64,000 nt of DNA from Anaerolineae bacterium (GTDB lineage: Bacteria > Chloroflexota > Anaerolineae > DRVO01), in NCBI GenBank assembly GCA_013178015.1, contig JABLXR010000031.1, forward strand, positions 21,108 through 85,107, read 5' to 3'. Shown piece after piece: positions 4,001-26,913 of the stretch. Made by a program: the position numbers and the translations under genes. Below the pieces are notes generated by a model. It saw nothing but the letters and a program-made list of their open reading frames with translations. It searched no databases and was not told the origin of the DNA. How positions within the stretch are numbered: the stretch's first letter is position 1; every line of letters begins with the position of its first letter.

Positions 4001-4174
4001 GGCCGCGTCCATAGGCGCCTGACGACGGGTCTTGGCACGCCGGCCAAGCCTGTGTCCTTCTTCTCTGCCTCGCGTGCGCCAGCCTGGGGCAGGTTGGGGT
4101 ATAATAGCCTGACCCCACCCCATGGACCCAGGCCGCGTCAGGGTGACGCGGGAGGCCGCAGCAGAGAGGGAGGC

Positions 4175-4708
4175 ATGCCTGAACCGGAAACCATGAAGAG
4201 GCCGGCGCTACTGGACGTGCGCAAGCTGGCTTCGAGCGGCGCCCTGGGGACAGTGCGCTCCTACTATGAGGCCGGAAGCGCCTGGCTGGTTCCAGTGGCA
4301 CTGGCTGCAACTGTGATCTTCACCGCCATGGCGGTGGGCATGCTGCTGCTCTACGGTCAGGGTGGCGCTGCTCAGCCGGCGCCTAGCGCCACTGCGCTTC
4401 CCCTGCCCACCGACACGGCTACGCCCCCGCCCACCATAGAGCCAACGCCTACGGCCGAGCCCACCGCCACTGCCACCCCGGAACCGACCGCCACCCCCAG
4501 CCCGACGCCGCGCCCCACACCTACGCCCACCCCGCCGCCCACGGCCACGCCTGTCCCCATCACCTATACCGTGGAGGCAGGTGACACTCTGAGCGCCATC
4601 GCCCGGGCCCAGGATGTCTCTCTGCAAGCTCTGATAGAGGCCAACGACATCGAGGACCCCAATCGCATCCGCGTGGGTCAGGTCCTGATCATACCACGGT
4701 CGGAGTAG
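4175..4708 (+). CDS. LysM-domain membrane-anchored protein with Pro/Thr-rich linker
   Basis: AGAGGGAGG lies upstream of the ATG at 4175. There is an N-terminal TM helix and a low-complexity PTPTAEPTATATPEPTATPSPTPRPTPTPTPP linker. The C-terminal LysM motif reads YTVEAGDTLSAIA…ANDIEDPNRIRVGQVLIIP. Confidence 0.75.
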   Translation: MPEPETMKRPALLDVRKLASSGALGTVRSYYEAGSAWLVPVALAATVIFTAMAVGMLLLYGQGGAAQPAPSATALPLPTDTATPPPTIEPTPTAEPTATATPEPTATPSPTPRPTPTPTPPPTATPVPITYTVEAGDTLSAIARAQDVSLQALIEANDIEDPNRIRVGQVLIIPRSE

Positions 4709-19386: not shown

Positions 19387-20568
19387 GTGAGCGTGACTGC
19401 AGCAAGCGACCAGCCACCGGGTAGCCCGGCTCTCGAGACCAGAGCGCCTAGCGTCCTGGTCAAGCCTGTGTCCGCCCGGTGCAACCTGGCTTGTCGATAC
19501 TGCTTCTATCGGGACCGGGCGAGCGACCCCTATCGAGGCGTACCGGCCGGAACCATGCCCCGCGAGACGTTGGCTGCCCTCGTGGCCCAGCACCTGCATC
19601 TCTCGGGGCCGGTCGCCGTGTTTGGCTGGCAAGGGGGAGAGCCCACTCTGGCGGGCCTCGACTTCTTCCGCCAAGTAGTGAACTTCCAGGAACGATACGG
19701 CGCCTCCGGTCAGGTAGTGTGCAACGCGCTGCAGACGAACGGTGTGGCGCTGGACGCCGAGTGGGCCCGATTCCTGGCTCGCTACCGGTTCCTGGTTGGT
19801 GTGAGCCTTGACGGCCCTCCAGAAGTGCACGATCGCTGGAGGCCCGGCCACGGTGGGGCGCCCACCTACGAGCGGGTCATGGCCGGCATCTCCATCCTGA
19901 GGCGGTATCGGGTGGAGACAAACATACTGGCGGTCGTGCACTCCGCCAATGCTCACCTCGCGGAGACCACTCTGTCGTTCTTCCACGCCCAAGGCCTGCG
20001 GCACCTCCAGTTCGTGCCGGCCGTGGACCGTCTCCCCGACGGATCCCTGGCGGCACACTCCCTCGCTCCGGCCGCTTACGGCGAATTCCTCTGCCGCCTA
20101 TTTGACGCCTGGTATCAGGACGGCCGCCCGGAGCTCTCCATCCGTCTCTTCGACAATCTGGTGGGTATCGCCGCCGGGCACCCCAGCGAGATGTGCGAGC
20201 TAGCAGCACGTTGCGACAGCTACTACGTGGTAGAGCACAACGGTGACGTGTATCCTTGCGACTTCTTCGTGGACCGGCCCCGCTACCTCGGCAACCTGCT
20301 TCGTGAGCCGGTGACCCAGATCCTGAAGAGCTCCCGCCGCCGAGCGTTCGCCAGCACCAGACAGACGCTGCCCCAGGGGTGCGCCGACTGCGTGTGGCTG
20401 ACCGTGTGCCACGGGGGCTGCCTGCGGTATCGCTTCGCTGGTACGGGCTCCCTCACCGGGGCCAACTGGATGTGCGAGGCCACCATCATGCTGCTCGAAC
20501 ACGCCTGGGAGCGGATCTGCACTCTAGCCGCAGCCATTCCTTCACATGCCAGCTCTCCCCCAGCGTGA
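19387..20568 (+). CDS. radical SAM/SPASM-domain protein (anSME-like maturase family)
   Basis: GTG start. The CNLACRYC (Cx3Cx2C) motif begins at residue about 31. The C-terminal SPASM cysteine cluster reads …CADCVWLTVCHGGCLRY…. Confidence 0.85.
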   Translation: MSVTAASDQPPGSPALETRAPSVLVKPVSARCNLACRYCFYRDRASDPYRGVPAGTMPRETLAALVAQHLHLSGPVAVFGWQGGEPTLAGLDFFRQVVNFQERYGASGQVVCNALQTNGVALDAEWARFLARYRFLVGVSLDGPPEVHDRWRPGHGGAPTYERVMAGISILRRYRVETNILAVVHSANAHLAETTLSFFHAQGLRHLQFVPAVDRLPDGSLAAHSLAPAAYGEFLCRLFDAWYQDGRPELSIRLFDNLVGIAAGHPSEMCELAARCDSYYVVEHNGDVYPCDFFVDRPRYLGNLLREPVTQILKSSRRRAFASTRQTLPQGCADCVWLTVCHGGCLRYRFAGTGSLTGANWMCEATIMLLEHAWERICTLAAAIPSHASSPPA

Positions 20569-20598
20569 GGGAGAGAAACACACCCGGAGGCCTTCCTG

Positions 20599-21534
20599 AT
20601 GCGCATCGTCTTCTTCTCTTACCGCGGCACCATCGGCGCCCGCTGCTTACAGTGGCTCCTGCAGCAGCCACAGGCAGAGGTGCTGGCGGTGGTCACCTGG
20701 CCTGATTACGTTCACCCGGAGATCAAGATCGCCGTCAAGGAGGTGCTCTACGATGCGCACCTTCCCCTCTACCAGCCGCGGGATGTGAACTCGAGTGCCT
20801 TCGTCGCCCTCCTGCATTCGCTCCGGCCGGACCTGTTCGTTTCCATGTACTTCGGCAAGCTCTTCAAGGCCCCGCTCCTTTCCGTCCCACCCCAGGGCTG
20901 TGTCAACATCCACAACTCGCTTCTGCCCCGATACCGAGGCCAGGCGCCCAACATCTGGGCGGTAGCCAACGGGGATACCGTATCCGGCCAGACCATGCAC
21001 TACCTGGATGAGGGGATGGACACTGGAGACATCATCGCCCGCAAAGAGATACCTGTGGACCCCGCCGACACCGGTTACACGCTGGGGGCAAAGCTGGAGG
21101 ACCTGGGGGTAGAGCTCTTCAAGGAGGCGTTCCCCGCCGTGCTGAATGGTACCGCTGGCCGCCAGAAGCAGGACGACTCTCAGGCTACGGTCTGCCGTGC
21201 GCCTCGTCCTCACGATGCTCGCATAGACTGGACCCGTCCAGCTCCGGCCATAGCCAACTTCGTCCGGGCCTTCACCAGGCCGTATATGGGAGCCTTCACC
21301 CGGCTGGGCGGGCTCACAGTCCGGGTCTGGTCCTCACGTCCCGCCCCCGAGCTTCCGTGGCAGGCGGATGCCGCACCGGGCGACGTGGCAGGAGTGGAGG
21401 CCGAGGGACCAATAGTGCGCTGCGGCCAGGGCCACCTCATCCTGACCGACTTTGAGGTAGAGGGCATCCAGGACCGGAGCTCGGCCCTGTCACTGCTTTC
21501 GGCAGGCAGGCGTAGCTGCGCCTCGTTCGCCTGA
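20599..21534 (+). CDS. formyltransferase-family protein (Fmt/ArnA-N-like)
   Basis: The N-terminus MRIVFFSY…, an NIHNSLLPRYRGQAPNIWAV (SLLP/HxSLLPxxRG) motif and an Fmt-like C-terminal domain are present over 311 aa. Confidence 0.8.
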   Translation: MRIVFFSYRGTIGARCLQWLLQQPQAEVLAVVTWPDYVHPEIKIAVKEVLYDAHLPLYQPRDVNSSAFVALLHSLRPDLFVSMYFGKLFKAPLLSVPPQGCVNIHNSLLPRYRGQAPNIWAVANGDTVSGQTMHYLDEGMDTGDIIARKEIPVDPADTGYTLGAKLEDLGVELFKEAFPAVLNGTAGRQKQDDSQATVCRAPRPHDARIDWTRPAPAIANFVRAFTRPYMGAFTRLGGLTVRVWSSRPAPELPWQADAAPGDVAGVEAEGPIVRCGQGHLILTDFEVEGIQDRSSALSLLSAGRRSCASFA

Positions 21535-21682
21535 GCCCATCGGGCGAAGGATGGCACGGCGATCCGCCTCTTCTGCCCGCCCAACCTCTCGATGGCTTTC
21601 CCTGTGGCTGTGACCCCTCGCCCGTCCCTACAGCCTGGCCAGCGTTGCCCAGAAGCGTCCGCCCCCTCATAACTGCGTCAAG

Positions 21683-21741
21683 TTGCCGGATCCGGCAAAA
21701 AAGTCTGCCGGATCCGGCAATCAGATTTGCCGGATCCGACA
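21683..21741. promoter_or_regulatory. three tandem palindromic operator-like sites TTGCCG-GATC-CGGCAA (ComA-box-like 6-N4-6 geometry)
   Basis: A perfect 16-bp palindrome at 21683-21698 with near-copies at 21706-21720 and 21727-21741, spaced about 22-23 bp apart and lying in an intergenic region. The half-site TGCCGGA recurs at 22454-22488. Confidence 0.6.
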
Positions 21742-21920
21742 TGACGAACCCTGCCTCAAGCCCGGTATCATACACCTGCGGTGGAAGCAAGGCCGTTGCC
21801 GTGGACCGCGGCGACACTGCCGCCAGGGAGGGGAGCCGACCACCTCCAGACTCGCACGGCGGCGGAGGGCCGGGCCTGCGACAGCTTCCGCCATATCTGG
21901 CCAGAGGTGGAGAGGTACCG

Positions 21921-22244
21921 GTGACCGCTCAGAATGGTACAAGGGCACTGGTGTATATTCGGGTGTCCTCGGGCTTCGGCGTGGACGGCCAGCGGGAACG
22001 CTGCCTCAGAGAGGCGATGCGTGCCGGCTGGAGGGTGGAAGCTGGTGACGTGTACATAGACGTAGGGACGGAGGGCGGCCGCGCCTGGCGAGCCCTGCGA
22101 CGGCGGCTTCTGGACGACCAGTCCGTAGCGGCCGTGATCGCCCAGGATCAGACTCGGGTGAGCCAGCAGCGCGACGTCTGGCTCGCCATCGCCGCCGAGC
22201 TGCGCGACCTGGGCGTCGAGCTGCGCACTCCTAGTGCCAGTTGA
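21921..22244 (+). pseudogene. truncated serine recombinase (resolvase catalytic domain only, no DNA-binding domain)
   Basis: A GTG start follows GGAGAGG. The sequence ALVYIRVSSGFGVDGQRERCLREAMRAGW… matches the resolvase N-terminal catalytic-Ser motif. It spans only about 107 aa and lacks the C-terminal HTH. Confidence 0.5.
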
Positions 22245-22423
22245 CCCCTCATCCGGGTACGACGGCCACGGCCAGGGCGTCTCGGGCGGCTGAGCACCCA
22301 TCCCGCACGGGCGCCAGCGGGGCCGCCTGGTCCCTGGCTGGACCCTGTCGGACTCGGACAGGGGCAGAAAGACAGGCCAGGCCGAGGGGAGGCCAACTCG
22401 GACATTGCCGGGTATTGCTTGAT

Positions 22424-22453
22424 TTGACGTGTAATGGAAATCAGCTCTAGTAT
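22424..22453 (+). promoter_or_regulatory. candidate sigma70-type promoter for the precursor operon (TTGACG-N18-TAGTAT)
   Basis: An AT-rich island stands out in a GC-rich background about 170 nt upstream of the precursor ATG. It is followed by the split palindrome CTGCCGGA-N19-TCCGGCAG. Confidence 0.4.
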
Positions 22454-22620
22454 CTGCCGGAAGTGCGAAAGTGGTACCTATCCGGCAGCCAGGCTTGGTG
22501 GGTCCGGCACGGCCGCGGAAGCGGCGGTGGCGCGCTCTGATCGCCGGGGCAGGTAGTGGGGCGGCATACCTTGCCTCCGGAAGGTTACGGCGCCGCTCTG
22601 GAAGCGCTCAGGAGGTCCGT

Positions 22621-22911
22621 ATGAATCATCTGGCCCGCGCTGTACACGACGCACTCTCAGGCAAGAGGTCCATTGATCAGCTCACTGAGACCGAGGCGTT
22701 GGCCCTCGAGGAGTCGCTCAGAAGCCTCGGGCGAGCCCGGGGCTCTGTGGGTCCCCAGGAGGCCTGGGCCGTGTCGCCAATGGCCCAAGCCGGACCGGGC
22801 CCCCAAGAAGCCTGGGCCGTGTCCCCTATGGCTGAGGCCGGTCCGGGCCCTCAGGAGGCCTGGGCCGTATCGCCAGCAAGCAAGACGGACCCCAGCGCCG
22901 GGGAACTCTAA
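22621..22911 (+). CDS. ComX-like precursor peptide with three tandem 16-aa Trp-containing repeats
   Basis: AGGAGG lies 5 nt before the ATG at 22621. The 43-aa leader is followed by GPQEAWAVSPMAQAGP / GPQEAWAVSPMAEAGP / GPQEAWAVSPASKTDPSAGEL, encoded by 48-bp repeats at 22750-22908 that carry synonymous differences. The ORF from 22471 is an over-extension. Confidence 0.6.
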   Translation: MNHLARAVHDALSGKRSIDQLTETEALALEESLRSLGRARGSVGPQEAWAVSPMAQAGPGPQEAWAVSPMAEAGPGPQEAWAVSPASKTDPSAGEL

Positions 22912-23101
22912 GCCGGTTCGGCCGTCGAGGAGCCAATCACACGCCTTGCCTGAGCTGGCAGGTTCTGTTCCCACGACTGCCGCGCCGGACCCGGGGTCTG
23001 CAGGCCACCTAGAAGGCTTCCGTGCCAGAGCCCGTGCCCTGATCGGAGGTTGCCTCAGCGAGGCGGGCGTCGAGCAAGCCTGTGCCCGGCAGATCAGCGA
23101 C

Positions 23102-23968
23102 ATGGTGGCCAGTTGGTTGGATCAGAGCCGGCATCACCAGGGCATACTAGACCTGCCAGCTCTCGTCTGCTGGGCCGCAGGGGGCGACCCCGTCCAGGCG
23201 GCGCCGGCCGGCGCCGCCTGGTGGCTCATGCGGTTTGCTGCCAAGCTCTTCGACGATGTAGAGGACGGCGACCTGTCCCACGGGCTTCCGGAGGCGGTGA
23301 ATCTGGCTTCTGCTGCCCTGATGGCTGCCCAGGCGCTCATCTTGGGCTCGGCCTGGCCAGCCCCGGCTGGCCCTACCGCTGTCGGCCTCGAGTTCGCCCG
23401 CGCCTGCCTCGTAGCTGCCGGGGGGCAGCATCTGGACCTGGCGGTCGCGAGCGGCCAGGCACACATTGACCCGGACCTCTGGCTCTCCATGGCCCAGGGC
23501 AAGTCGGGCTCGCTCCTGGGCTGGGCCGCGTGGGCCGGAGCCGTGGCCGCAGGGGTAGACCCTGCCCTCGCCTGCCACTTCCGTGACTACGGCAGATGGC
23601 TCGGCGTCCTGGTGCAGATTGCCGACGATTACGCCGATACGTGGAGCCCGACCTCTCCGGCCGACCATGGCTTCCGCGGCTCCTCGTTGGCGCTCGCTTA
23701 CGGACATCTGGTCTCCGATGGCGACACGAGGGCGGAGCTCGAGCTGTGGCTGAAGAGAGCCAGGGATGGCGATTGCTGCGCCGCTGAGCTCCTGCGCCGG
23801 AAGCTTGCTTCCCTCGGTGCGCCGGCCTTCCTCGTGGTGGCGGCCAGGGATTGCCGGGAGCGAGCGACGCGTGAGCTCAGGAAGACAGGCTGCCAGGCAA
23901 GTCGCGGTGCTCCCCTGCTGGGCCTCCTGGGACACCCGCTGAGATCGGTCGAGCAGGCGGGGGTGTGA
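23102..23968 (+). CDS. polyprenyl synthase-like isoprenoid transferase (ComQ-like)
   Basis: Two DDxxD motifs are present (AAKLFDDVEDGD and LVQIADDYADTW, the latter in an FQxxDDxxD-like context). The stop lies 4 nt before the kinase start. The start is uncertain: the first in-frame ATG is at 23102 and an upstream TTG at about 22947 is an alternative. The 22673 ORF start overlaps the precursor and is rejected. Confidence 0.65.
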   Translation: MVASWLDQSRHHQGILDLPALVCWAAGGDPVQAAPAGAAWWLMRFAAKLFDDVEDGDLSHGLPEAVNLASAALMAAQALILGSAWPAPAGPTAVGLEFARACLVAAGGQHLDLAVASGQAHIDPDLWLSMAQGKSGSLLGWAAWAGAVAAGVDPALACHFRDYGRWLGVLVQIADDYADTWSPTSPADHGFRGSSLALAYGHLVSDGDTRAELELWLKRARDGDCCAAELLRRKLASLGAPAFLVVAARDCRERATRELRKTGCQASRGAPLLGLLGHPLRSVEQAGV

Positions 23969-23972
23969 CGTC

Positions 23973-26231
23973 ATGGACTTTGCGCCGACCACACAGCTCT
24001 CCCGGAGTTCTCGTGCATCGGCCCTGAGCGCCCTGCACATCGTCCTGATAGTTGCCTGCGCCCTCCTCGTCCTCTGGGCCGCCTCGGCGGCAGTTGGTCG
24101 GTCCTGCAGGCACGGCGGAGGCACCGCCCCCTTCCACGGAGGGGCCTGTCCTTCTTTGGCCGAGGACCTGGCGCCGTTAGCGGTCGCCCTCGGACTGGCG
24201 ATGATAGCCTGGCGACTGCGACACCTGCCCCAACCCTCTCCCTTCCTCACCTTCATAGGCTTCTCGATTGCAGTGGCCTCCGGCAAGCTCGGGCTGCTCG
24301 GCAGCGATGTGGGCATGAGGCTGTACTTCATCTCGCTGGCGGGGGCAGCACCAGCTTTCTTCCTCCTTCATCACCGCCTGCTCGGGGAGCCGTTGGGGCG
24401 CCGTTCCCGGAGGGTCCTCGCGGCGCTCCTCGGCCTGGCCCTGGGGCTCGCCCTGCCGCCGGCTCTGGCCTCCTTCGCCGTCCTGGCAGAGCAGCCCTGG
24501 TACTCCCTGTGGCGGGGAATGGTCCGCCTGTCGGCGGCCTTGTCTGTGTTGGTGTCCGGAGCCTGGCTGGTGTTCTCCTGGAGGCGGGACTGGCCCGAGG
24601 TGAAGCTGCGACCCCTGCGTCTGGTAACCTATGGCAACATCGTCGCCTTCGCCCCTCTGGTGTTGCTGTCCATGCTGCCCGACACCTTTCACAGCCCAGT
24701 CTACGTGCCCTACGAGATCACCCTCTTTGGCTCCCTCCTGAGCCCGCTCTGCTACTCCCACGCTTTCACTATGACCGGTGCCCCGGGGCACGGGGTCCGC
24801 CTGCGGTTCCTTTCTGTCTACCTGATGCTGGCCGTCCTGCTCACCTTCGTCCTCCTGGTGGCAATGGCCGCTTTCACTGTCGCTGGCCTGCCAGTAGGTC
24901 AGGCCTGGGCGATCGCTCTGCTGGTCGCTTCGGCTGCCATCGTTGCCGTCGGGCCGAGCACAAGGCGGTGGTTCACCGGCCTGTCCGAGTGGACCTGGTT
25001 CGGTCGCGGCCCTGGGTACGACCAGATCCTGGATCGCCTGTCCGAGACTCTTTCCACCACCTTGGACCAGGAGCGTCTGCGCCGCATGCTGGTTTCCGAG
25101 CTCGTTCGGGAGTTAGGCCTCTCCGGCGCCGCTCTGTTCCTCAAAGACAGCACCGGTCACCTGCGTCTGGTCGAGGCCGTGGGGTCGATGCACCTGGAGA
25201 ATGCTGACCTGGCTGTCCCCGTGGATGGCCCCCTGGTGGAGCATCTCTCCACCCACCCACGCCCCGTCACCCAAGACGGACTGCGGCAGGCACTTGCCTC
25301 ACACAGCCTTGGCATGGCGGAGCGGTTCCTGCTGGCCATGGAACCGCCTCTCTGGGTGCCGCTCGTCTCGGGGGGCGAGGCGTACGGCCTTCTGCTGGTA
25401 GGTCCCAAGACCGATGCCGACTTCTTCACCCCTGATGACGTGCGCCTTCTGACACTGCTGGGCTACCGCGCCGGGGTGGCAGCACACAATGTGCTGCTTA
25501 TGAAAGAGCTGCGCCGCAGCCACGAGCAGCTTTCCCGGGCTCACCAGCGCCTCCTCGATGCCGTCGAGCAAGAGAGGCGACGCCTTGCCCACGAGCTGCA
25601 CGACGGAGCAGTGCAGCAACTCCTCGCCGTCACCTACCACGTCGCCCACTACCGGCACACCCTTGCCGATGACGGCGGCGAGCAGAGCTCGGCCGTGCAG
25701 GCGGCTTCCGAGGCGCTAGACTCGCTCCGGCAGGAGCTGCTAGCAGTGGTTACCCAGCTGCGGTCCAGCATCAGCGGCTTGCGCCCGGCCGGGCTGGACG
25801 ACTTGGGCCTGGCGGCGGCGCTGGCCGGCTACGTGTCCCGACTGGAACAGGAGCATCTGGGCCGCATGCCCGAGATTGAGCTGGACCTGGATGAGGGTTC
25901 GGCTCGGCTGCCCTCTCGCGTGTCCCTCTGTCTGTTTCGAGTGGCCCAGGAGGCCCTGCGCAACGCCATCAGGCATTCGAGAGCCGATTTTGTGCGTGTC
26001 AGGCTGAGGGTGGAGGCCGAGCGCGTTCACCTCCTGGTGAGTGACGACGGACAAGGTTTCGTCGTACCCGAGCGCCTGAGCCAGCTGACCGGCGAGGGTC
26101 ACTTCGGCTTGCTCAGCATCTCGGAGCGCGTCTCCCTGTTGCCGGGCAAGTTGACCATTCGCTCCCGTCCTGACTACGGAACGGAGATCTCTGTTGATGT
26201 TGACCTCAGCGAGGTAGACCCCAGTGATTGA
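23973..26231 (+). CDS. multi-TM sensor histidine kinase, HisKA_3/HATPase (ComP-like architecture, with GAF domain)
   Basis: About 8-10 N-terminal TM helices and a GAF-like region. The H-box LAHELHDGAVQQLLAV is of HisKA_3 type (NarX/DegS/ComP type), and a C-terminal ATPase domain follows. The protein is 752 aa. Confidence 0.85.
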   Translation: MDFAPTTQLSRSSRASALSALHIVLIVACALLVLWAASAAVGRSCRHGGGTAPFHGGACPSLAEDLAPLAVALGLAMIAWRLRHLPQPSPFLTFIGFSIAVASGKLGLLGSDVGMRLYFISLAGAAPAFFLLHHRLLGEPLGRRSRRVLAALLGLALGLALPPALASFAVLAEQPWYSLWRGMVRLSAALSVLVSGAWLVFSWRRDWPEVKLRPLRLVTYGNIVAFAPLVLLSMLPDTFHSPVYVPYEITLFGSLLSPLCYSHAFTMTGAPGHGVRLRFLSVYLMLAVLLTFVLLVAMAAFTVAGLPVGQAWAIALLVASAAIVAVGPSTRRWFTGLSEWTWFGRGPGYDQILDRLSETLSTTLDQERLRRMLVSELVRELGLSGAALFLKDSTGHLRLVEAVGSMHLENADLAVPVDGPLVEHLSTHPRPVTQDGLRQALASHSLGMAERFLLAMEPPLWVPLVSGGEAYGLLLVGPKTDADFFTPDDVRLLTLLGYRAGVAAHNVLLMKELRRSHEQLSRAHQRLLDAVEQERRRLAHELHDGAVQQLLAVTYHVAHYRHTLADDGGEQSSAVQAASEALDSLRQELLAVVTQLRSSISGLRPAGLDDLGLAAALAGYVSRLEQEHLGRMPEIELDLDEGSARLPSRVSLCLFRVAQEALRNAIRHSRADFVRVRLRVEAERVHLLVSDDGQGFVVPERLSQLTGEGHFGLLSISERVSLLPGKLTIRSRPDYGTEISVDVDLSEVDPSD

Positions 26232-26913
26232 TCGGCGAATCAGAGTGCTCTTGGCTGATGACCACCCCTTCATGCGCGCTGGCATCCGAGCCACGCCGGC
26301 AAGCGAAGGGGACGTCAGCGTGGTAGGCGAGGCCAGCAACGCCGATGAAGCGCTGCAGCTGGCGATGCAGCTCAAGCCCGATGTGCTCCTCCTGGACCTG
26401 CACATGCCCGGGTCTCCGGCAGGGTCCGTGGTTGAGGAACTGAAGCGCCGTTGCCCGAACGTCCGGGTGTTGGTGCTCACCGCCTACGACGACGACGTCT
26501 ACGTACAGGGCATGCTGGCGCTAGGTGTAGCGGGGTACGTCCTCAAGGACGAAGTGCCTGAAGCACTCGTCCGAGCCTTGCGGGCCGTCTACCGGGGCGA
26601 CACGTGGTTCAGCACCCGCGCCCTGAACGCGTTGGCCCGCAGCCGGCAGGCCTACATGCCCCAGGACGGGCAGGGCCTCTTCACTGAGAGAGAGCTCGAG
26701 ATATTGCGCTTGATGATGGTAGGCAAGACGGACCGAGAGATTGCGGACGAGCTAGTCTGCGCGGAGAGGACCGTCCGGTATCACTTGCGCGGCATCTTCG
26801 GCAAGCTGGGCGTAGACAGCAGGGTGGAAGCGGCGGTGCGCGCCGCCCAGCTGAACCTCGGCGGCCGGGAGGGCACTGCTTCGGACTCGAGCGCCGGCCA
26901 ATCGCCCTCGTAG
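26224..26913 (+). CDS. NarL/LuxR-family response regulator (ComA-like)
   Basis: The GTG start overlaps the kinase stop (GTGA). The receiver domain (VLLADDHP…LLLDLHMPG) is followed by the LuxR HTH (TERELEILRLMMVGKTDREIADELVCAERTVRYHL). Confidence 0.9.
   Translation: MIDRRIRVLLADDHPFMRAGIRATPASEGDVSVVGEASNADEALQLAMQLKPDVLLLDLHMPGSPAGSVVEELKRRCPNVRVLVLTAYDDDVYVQGMLALGVAGYVLKDEVPEALVRALRAVYRGDTWFSTRALNALARSRQAYMPQDGQGLFTERELEILRLMMVGKTDREIADELVCAERTVRYHLRGIFGKLGVDSRVEAAVRAAQLNLGGREGTASDSSAGQSPS

Follow-up and report, generated by a model that had tools for sequence, protein, structure and literature searches.

The closest described counterparts of the locus considered here are the ComQXPA quorum-sensing systems of Bacillus. 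In Bacillus subtilis, the ComA box consists of the inverted half-sites RE1 and RE2 (TTGCGG-N4-CCGCAA), together with the degenerate downstream elements RE3 and RE4 (PMC4797271). A census published in 2014 recorded no ComQXPA loci outside the Firmicutes (PMC4008528). According to a preprint of August 2026, StheQ, a ComQ homologue from Sphaerobacter thermophilus (Chloroflexota), prenylates the tryptophan of the neighbouring StheX peptide; the main text of that report makes no mention of a histidine kinase, a response regulator or a promoter (bioRxiv 10.64898/2026.08.29.745113). For NarL, it has been established that one regulator acts in both directions, repressing frdA via a 7-2-7 site and single heptamers at the start of transcription and activating narG from positions upstream (PMC4549865). 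Here we describe a ComX/Q/P/A-like locus from an Anaerolineae (Chloroflexota) metagenome-assembled genome, found in a 64,000-nt stretch of DNA which, taken as a whole, is referred to as the window. Our subject is an inverted repeat at 22454-22488, immediately 3' of P2, the predicted promoter of the gene for the ComX-like pheromone precursor.

The explanation we favour, with a probability of about 0.45, is that the half-sites in and beside this repeat are a degenerate copy of the operator array of the locus's own response regulator, left at its ancestral site before the precursor gene, where they would mediate weak feedback repression. The repeat itself is a minor element of a familiar kind, a candidate site for weak regulator binding. 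The quorum-sensing family around it, with an operator array that has changed place between lineages, is the more interesting result.

As an inverted repeat, the element is unremarkable. Its arms are as the sequence-only reading gave them, complementary at 8/8 positions with 19 nt between, and its first base is the base right after the -10 TAGTAT (22448-22453). The density of perfect inverted repeats with 8-nt arms and 3-30 nt loops is 0.78 per kb across the window, and dinucleotide shuffling of the 376-nt intergenic region produced such a repeat in 406 of 2000 trials (20%), so the bare repeat is no more than chance. The repeat is non-random because of the sequence of its arms, not because of their inverted form. 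Both CTGCCGGA and TCCGGCAG are identical to half-sites of the palindromes at 21683-21742, and as copies of this specific motif they are more than chance. The exact 8-mer TCCGGCAG is expected 0.006 times within the 58 nt past arm 1. A third exact heptamer, TCCGGCA, stands at 22503-22509, 22 bp beyond arm 2, a distance equal to the period of the palindrome array. Three or more exact heptamers per 60 bp are found at only two places in the window, 21684-21734 and 22455-22509, and in none of 400 shuffles of it.

The palindrome that provides these half-sites, TTGCCGGATCCGGCAA, is 16 bp long and has a 6-4-6 layout (TTGCCG-GATC-CGGCAA, with a 4-nt spacer). Tandem arrays of it were found in five Chloroflexota lineages, whose ComQ-like proteins are 41-62% identical to that of the window. 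Three copies lie 5' of a small resolvase-like gene in the window, and likewise in the L004 group, which contains the ortholog of the locus. Two copies are placed directly 5' of the precursor gene in L007 and in the L010 group, and three lie just 3' of the regulator gene in L023. In 5/5 lineages (window, L004, L007, L010 and L023), a TAnnnT hexamer follows 22-23 nt past the last operator. Under standard promoter geometry, the operator centre would be near -42.5 of the corresponding promoter in the window, P1, which is the class-II activator position; P1 is presumed to be a regulator-activated promoter with TATCAT as its -10. The array is near-invariant between window and ortholog and its flanks are divergent, making it an island of conservation. 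The arrays go with the com-like genes, not with the resolvase-like gene. The recognition helix ERT[VI]RY[HC]LR is present in all regulators compared from operator-bearing lineages (window, L004, L010 and L023), and three lineages with a clearly different helix have no operator; L019 has the helix and no array within the 7.8 kb examined. On the strength of co-occurrence, helix and conservation, the palindrome is taken to be the operator of the locus's ComA-like response regulator, which is of the NarL/FixJ type. An alternative role as res-like sites of the resolvase-like gene was rejected, since the same arrays occur without that gene in L007, L010 and L023; this role is also countered by the resolvase-like protein having a catalytic domain only.

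Some variation of the arrays was seen within the family. At L027 8920-8935 there is one operator copy where L004 (1804-1862) and L028, of the same lineage, have three, reflecting either recombination between the 22-bp repeats or assembly collapse. At L023 3951-4196, the triple array begins right after the regulator stop codon and is followed by TAGAAT and then by ~150 nt without a credible open reading frame, ending in a strong hairpin with a T-run (4161-4196). This stretch may encode a quorum-sensing-controlled small RNA. Other repeated motifs, with GTAC or GGTAC, are found 5' of the precursor genes in L021 and L025 (in both, 100 nt 5' of the precursor) and in L016 (5400-5625), whose regulators have a different helix, which suggests that operator and regulator co-diverged within the family. 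The loop of the repeat at P2 contains GGTACC, and its likeness to the GTAC-rich repeats 5' of other lineages' precursors was treated as coincidence.

At P2, the half-sites can be assigned to three operator-like units, opA, opB and opC (see the table), each with one perfect heptamer and a partner half that is decayed or near random. The inverted repeat would thereby be composed of the left half of opA and the right half of opB, two adjacent degenerate operator copies. CTGCCGGA is the left half of operator 2 in the intact array (21705-21712), and TCCGGCA is the right half of operators 1 and 2. A gap-free alignment, with 21/30 positions identical, matches segment 22479-22509 to operator 3, the spacer before it and the right half of operator 2. 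Neutral decay would have scattered the operator matches over the units; they are pooled in the three perfect heptamers, with P about 1.5e-4 under random placement in a post hoc test. The distance to the precursor ATG is 110 nt for the degenerate array in the window and 98 nt in the ortholog, and 90 nt and 68 nt for the intact arrays in L007 and L010. In a position weight matrix scan of the window, 5 of the best 65 operator-like 16-mers fell within 22405-22961, with 4.7-10.9 bits.

Two further arrangements were considered for these units and discarded. There is no common 22-bp register or helical phasing across the P2 half-sites, as arm 1 is off by 3 bp and the register holds for arm 2 and the third site alone. 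Nor is there a sign of a regulator-dependent promoter 3' of the degenerate array, with no TAnnnT 22-23 nt past opC in either the window or its ortholog; TCTGAT comes closest to a -10 there, has an offset of 25 nt and is without the key A. Separately, the ninth-best operator-like 16-mer of the window (10.9 bits) occurs at 22945-22962, TTGCCTGAGCTGGCAG, where it overlaps two features, the ComQ-like gene's start codon and a terminator-like hairpin directly 3' of the precursor gene.

P2 itself is a consensus-like, activator-independent promoter directly 5' of the degenerate units. Its TTGACG-N18-TAGTAT is the sole consensus match within 21500-23500, where 0.1 are expected. The AT-rich island that the sequence-only reading had placed around it is borne out, with a GC content of 0.44-0.48 over 22400-22474 and 0.6-0.8 in the surroundings. 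From the standard distance between -10 and +1, the start of transcription is predicted at about 22460, inside arm 1, and P2 transcripts would therefore be without most of the 5' arm (at most 2-3 nt of it). From P1 to the precursor gene, a search for terminators on the + strand found none, so that read-through from P1 is possible. Such read-through transcripts would carry both arms.

Among 5.8 billion proteins, orthologs were sought using the ComQ-like protein, the resolvase-like protein and a profile of the precursor, and the ComQ-like alignment was also searched against genome and metagenome contigs. In all of these collections, only one further lineage with a P2 promoter was found, the L004 group, and its seven contigs covering the P2 stretch are identical there. 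The ortholog keeps the -35 (ATTTGAC), the length of the 18-nt spacer, the -10 (TAGCAT) and TGCCGG right after the -10. Also kept, and invariant, is GGGTCCGG, the counterpart of the third half-site. Conservation in orthologous loci, which the sequence-only reading had named as a check, thus fails for the repeat as such and holds for arm 1 and for a third half-site that it had not listed. The inner stem GUGC/GUAC has no alignable counterpart in the ortholog. A recent insertion splitting a palindrome was considered and rejected, the ortholog having a spacer of similar length at the same place.

The following sequence of events would account for these features. The ancestral position of the array would be directly before the precursor gene, as for the intact arrays in L007 and L010, and its remaining half-sites would today span about -6 to +51 of P2. 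Binding of the phosphorylated regulator to these hemi-sites would be weak, by single monomers or by dimers held on one good half. At such a place it could do no more than impede RNA polymerase, and basal transcription of the precursor gene would come under mild negative feedback. Activated transcription would be supplied by the intact triple array and P1, 740 bp upstream. This division of roles between P1 and P2 follows the precedent of NarL, with repression at the start of frdA and activation from upstream sites elsewhere. The half-sites at P2 may equally be on their way to loss. That a regulator site overlaps the transcription start had been one proposal of the sequence-only reading; it is plausible for arm 1, whose motif is a conserved operator half-site in the same place after the -10 of the ortholog, and weak for the repeat as a unit, in which the arms are too far apart and arm 2 is not conserved.

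Several observations weigh against weak repression through degenerate operators. As dimer sites the P2 units are poor, at 5.5, -4.6 and 8.7 bits vs 22-26 for the true operators, and their equivalents in the ortholog score below 4.6 bits. The arms are not one dimer site, being separated by 19 nt when counted as octamers and by 23 nt when counted as hexamers, vs the 4-nt spacer of the operator. Inverted-repeat spacers other than 4-5 nt abolish binding of ComA in vitro (PMC4797271), and a single dimer site across the arms is ruled out on account of the 23-nt hexamer spacing. The repeat as a unit is thus not an operator, and each arm is at best a hemi-site. The 21/30 similarity to the intact array is marginal, as it was equalled by 23 of 500 shuffles. 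Conservation does not extend to arm 2, in whose place the ortholog has TTCAGCTA, with 4/8 matches. From arm 1 to the third site the distance is 48 nt in the window vs 46 nt in the ortholog, and the 2-bp change alters the helical phasing. By our estimate, two sequences with about 55% identity over about 170 nt should share blocks of 6-8 nt by chance, and with a single independent comparison this makes conservation alone a weak argument. The TGCCGG after the -10 could, moreover, be a GC-rich discriminator that shapes promoter kinetics.

Other explanations of the half-sites were weighed. One is that they are a vestigial operator with no present function, made redundant once P2 had arisen adjacent to it and an intact array lay 5' of the resolvase-like gene, the repeat being a chance survivor of decay. 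This would fit the position, which matches that of the intact arrays of outgroup lineages, as well as the colinear similarity to the intact array, the weak matrix scores and the further decay in the ortholog, where 27/48 matches are left vs 31/48 in the window and arm 2 has been lost. It does not sit well with the concentration of matches in three perfect heptamers, or with the retention of 2/3 heptamer cores in both lineages, and we consider it somewhat unlikely. Far less credit is given to plain coincidence, that is, a GC-rich discriminator that happens to resemble a half-site and a chance complement downstream. Inverted repeats of 8 nt are common, as seen above, and TGCCGGA is generally over-represented in this genome (31 copies vs 14.8 expected), with the copies outside the two clusters mostly scattered singly through the window. 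The rarity of the complementary 8-mer and the absence of comparable heptamer clusters from the shuffles speak to the contrary, as does the finding that the 64 kb contain just one more cluster of this kind, which is the bona fide operator array of the locus itself; we hold coincidence to be very improbable. A more elaborate version of the regulatory reading, which we regard as a long shot, is a two-promoter circuit. Here the regulator would activate P1, with read-through into the pheromone operon, and shut the constitutive P2 via hemi-sites from +1 to +51, thereby switching pheromone production from basal to induced; in addition, alternative RNA pairings of arm 1, with arm 2 or with the third site, might arise only in the induced read-through transcript. 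If true, such a circuit would combine positive and negative autoregulation in a way not described for ComX-type systems.

The remaining alternative is an RNA stem-loop, which the sequence-only reading had placed in the 5' untranslated region of the precursor mRNA. It could be 5'-terminal in that mRNA or lie within the P1 read-through transcript, with arm 1 pairing to arm 2 or to the third site, and act on mRNA stability or processing. The isolated 35-mer folds with -18.1 kcal/mol (z = -4.4), a value that is circular, since the segment was chosen as an inverted repeat. Its inner 4-bp stem includes a G-U pair possible on the + strand only, and the hairpin is retained when the leader is folded in full. 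Extended folds, by comparison, are no better than shuffles (z = -1.3, -1.2 and -0.6; -1.3 for a 62-nt and -0.6 for a 187-nt context). The RNA-fold comparison that the sequence-only reading called for turned out unfavourably for its hairpin: the minimum-energy fold of the ortholog joins arm 1 to the conserved third site, and RNAalifold picks this same pairing, not arm 1 with arm 2, for both sequences. A helix between arm 1 and the third site would be available to both lineages, as the 2-nt difference in loop length is irrelevant to an RNA; yet no covariation was found in it, all columns being invariant or changed on one side only. Rfam gave no match at 22454-22488 at E <= 1, and only sub-threshold matches on the palindrome array. 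Read-through from P1, being possible, would provide an RNA with both arms, but transcripts from P2 would hold only the last few nucleotides of arm 1, and the ortholog does not have the hairpin of arms 1 and 2. The precursor start codon is 132 nt 3' of the repeat, which makes no contact with the ribosome-binding site. Altogether, a functional stem-loop appears unlikely, and more so than a vestigial operator. The reading of the repeat as a terminator was discarded, there being no T-run after the hairpin. Elsewhere in the leader, RNAalifold (window and ortholog) predicts a stem at 22555-22620 that pairs the ribosome-binding site CAGGAGGTC with the upstream leader; it shows two double-sided changes, which are very weak evidence with two sequences.

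Features of the ComX/Q/P/A-like locus and of the operator-like sites around P2, with positions in the window
Feature	Position	Strand	Remarks
Intact triple operator array	21683..21742	+	TTGCCGGATCCGGCAA, CTGCCGGATCCGGCAA, TTGCCGGATCCGACAT; 22-bp period; 22-26 bits, top three in window
P1, -10-like TATCAT	21766..21771	+	23 nt past last operator; would read into resolvase-like gene, possibly onward
107-aa resolvase-like protein	21921..22244	+	Between P1 and P2; resolvase N-terminal domain only; 73% identical in ortholog
Extra forward half-site	22405..22412	+	TTGCCGGG; 11 nt 5' of -35; as 16-mer 4.7 bits, rank 59; absent from ortholog
P2, sigma-70-type promoter for precursor gene	22424..22453	+	TTGACG-N18-TAGTAT; -35 at 22424-22429, -10 at 22448-22453; ortholog TTGACC-N18-TAGCAT
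Arm 1 of inverted repeat	22454..22461	+	CTGCCGGA; forward operator half-site; about -6 to +2 of P2 (predicted)
opA	22454-22469	+	10/16 operator matches; 5.5 bits; rank 48 of 64,000 positions
Inner 4-bp stem GUGC/GUAC, 7-nt loop	22463..22477	+	Inside repeat spacer; fold of 35-mer; matters only if region transcribed
opB	22473-22488	+	9/16 operator matches; -4.6 bits
Arm 2 of inverted repeat	22481..22488	+	TCCGGCAG; reverse operator half-site; about +22 to +29 of P2 (predicted)
opC	22495-22510	+	TTGGTGGGTCCGGCAC; 12/16 operator matches; 8.7 bits; rank 15 of 64,000; holds TCCGGCA at 22503-22509
ComX-like precursor, 96 aa	22621..22911	+	Leader MNxLAxAVHD; three tandem QEAWAVSP cores
ComQ-like polyprenyl-synthase-family protein	22946..23968	+	Domain and gene calls
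ComP-like histidine kinase	23973..26231	+	N-terminal region without Pfam match, then GAF, HisKA_3, HATPase_c
ComA-like response regulator	26224..26913	+	REC + GerE helix-turn-helix; presumed reader of TGCCGG half-sites

The genes downstream of P2 place the locus in the ComQXPA type, with all four components adjacent, on one strand and arranged as X-Q-P-A. At least 23 proteins make up the family of the precursor, in which the leader MNxLAxAVHD is shared and the tryptophan is invariant. Each of the three cores in the window is encoded by one of three tandem 48-nt repeats; four are present in the ortholog, L010 shows two PW motifs and a single core is usual among the members, and the protein may thus be a multi-core pheromone precursor. 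In the ComQ-like alignment, FDDVEDG and ADDY are invariant, the latter being part of the second Asp-rich motif, ADDYxD (invariant A226, D227, D228 and Y229). The pseudo-second motif described for StheQ begins with Asn (N215-D216-xx-D219; bioRxiv 10.64898/2026.08.29.745113) and may correspond to ADDYxD. By analogy with StheQ/StheX, the tryptophan of the precursor might be prenylated and the peptide sensed by the kinase. The closest solved relative of the response regulator is NarL, with E = 4.6e-33.

On the 5' side, the gene for the 107-aa resolvase-like protein stands directly 3' of the intact operator array and is a candidate quorum-sensing target. The protein lacks a DNA-binding domain, and no relatives beyond the ortholog were found among the 5.8 billion proteins. 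Just 5' of the array, 19387-21534 holds a radical-SAM/SPASM gene and a formyltransferase gene, which are syntenic in the ortholog; their products may act on the peptide, or the two genes may have no connection with it.

What is gained from the locus is a defined operator, arrays of TTGCCGGATCCGGCAA 22-23 nt from a -10, for an uncharacterised ComX/Q/P/A-like family in the Chloroflexota. The position of this operator has moved between lineages, so that it is found before the precursor gene, before the resolvase-like gene or behind the regulator gene. DNA fragments are at hand with which positive, negative or no feedback on pheromone production could be distinguished in uncultured bacteria, a matter that is debated even for ComX of Bacillus.

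Compared with the ComA boxes, the sites described here belong to a regulator of the same class (REC and a GerE-type four-helix helix-turn-helix) in a ComX/Q/P/A-type locus. The dyad is the same 6-4-6, with the operator differing only in the inner CG/GC, and in both cases strong sites are accompanied by degenerate half-sites nearby. The extra half-sites of ComA, however, lie between the inverted repeat and the -35 and aid activation, whereas those at P2 are 3' of the -10, where only interference would be expected, and the N19 repeat does not qualify as a dimer site of the ComA type. The host is also a member of the Anaerolineae (Chloroflexota) and not a Firmicute, the gene order is X-Q-P-A and not Q-X-P-A, and the system is known here from sequence alone. 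With ComQXPA of Bacillus and with StheQ/StheX, the locus shares a short Trp-containing precursor beside an enzyme of the polyprenyl-synthase family, and with ComQXPA also a membrane histidine kinase with HisKA_3 and a GerE-type regulator; it differs in having the precursor before the enzyme gene, three tandem cores and a recognisable operator.

Stem-loops that stabilise bacterial mRNAs at the 5' terminus, such as that of the E. coli ompA leader, must begin a few nucleotides after +1. The hairpin of the repeat resembles these in being stable and close to the predicted 5' end of the mRNA, but its 5' arm lies before or at the predicted +1 and it is not conserved in the ortholog. The sites of NarL at E. 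coli frdA and narG are 7-2-7 and not 6-4-6, and their half-site sequence is another one; at frdA a high-affinity 7-2-7 site covers -4/+6, whereas P2 would have hemi-sites only, at which repression is inferred. The likeness to NarL lies in the logic proposed for P1 and P2, by which a single regulator would activate from upstream and repress at the start.

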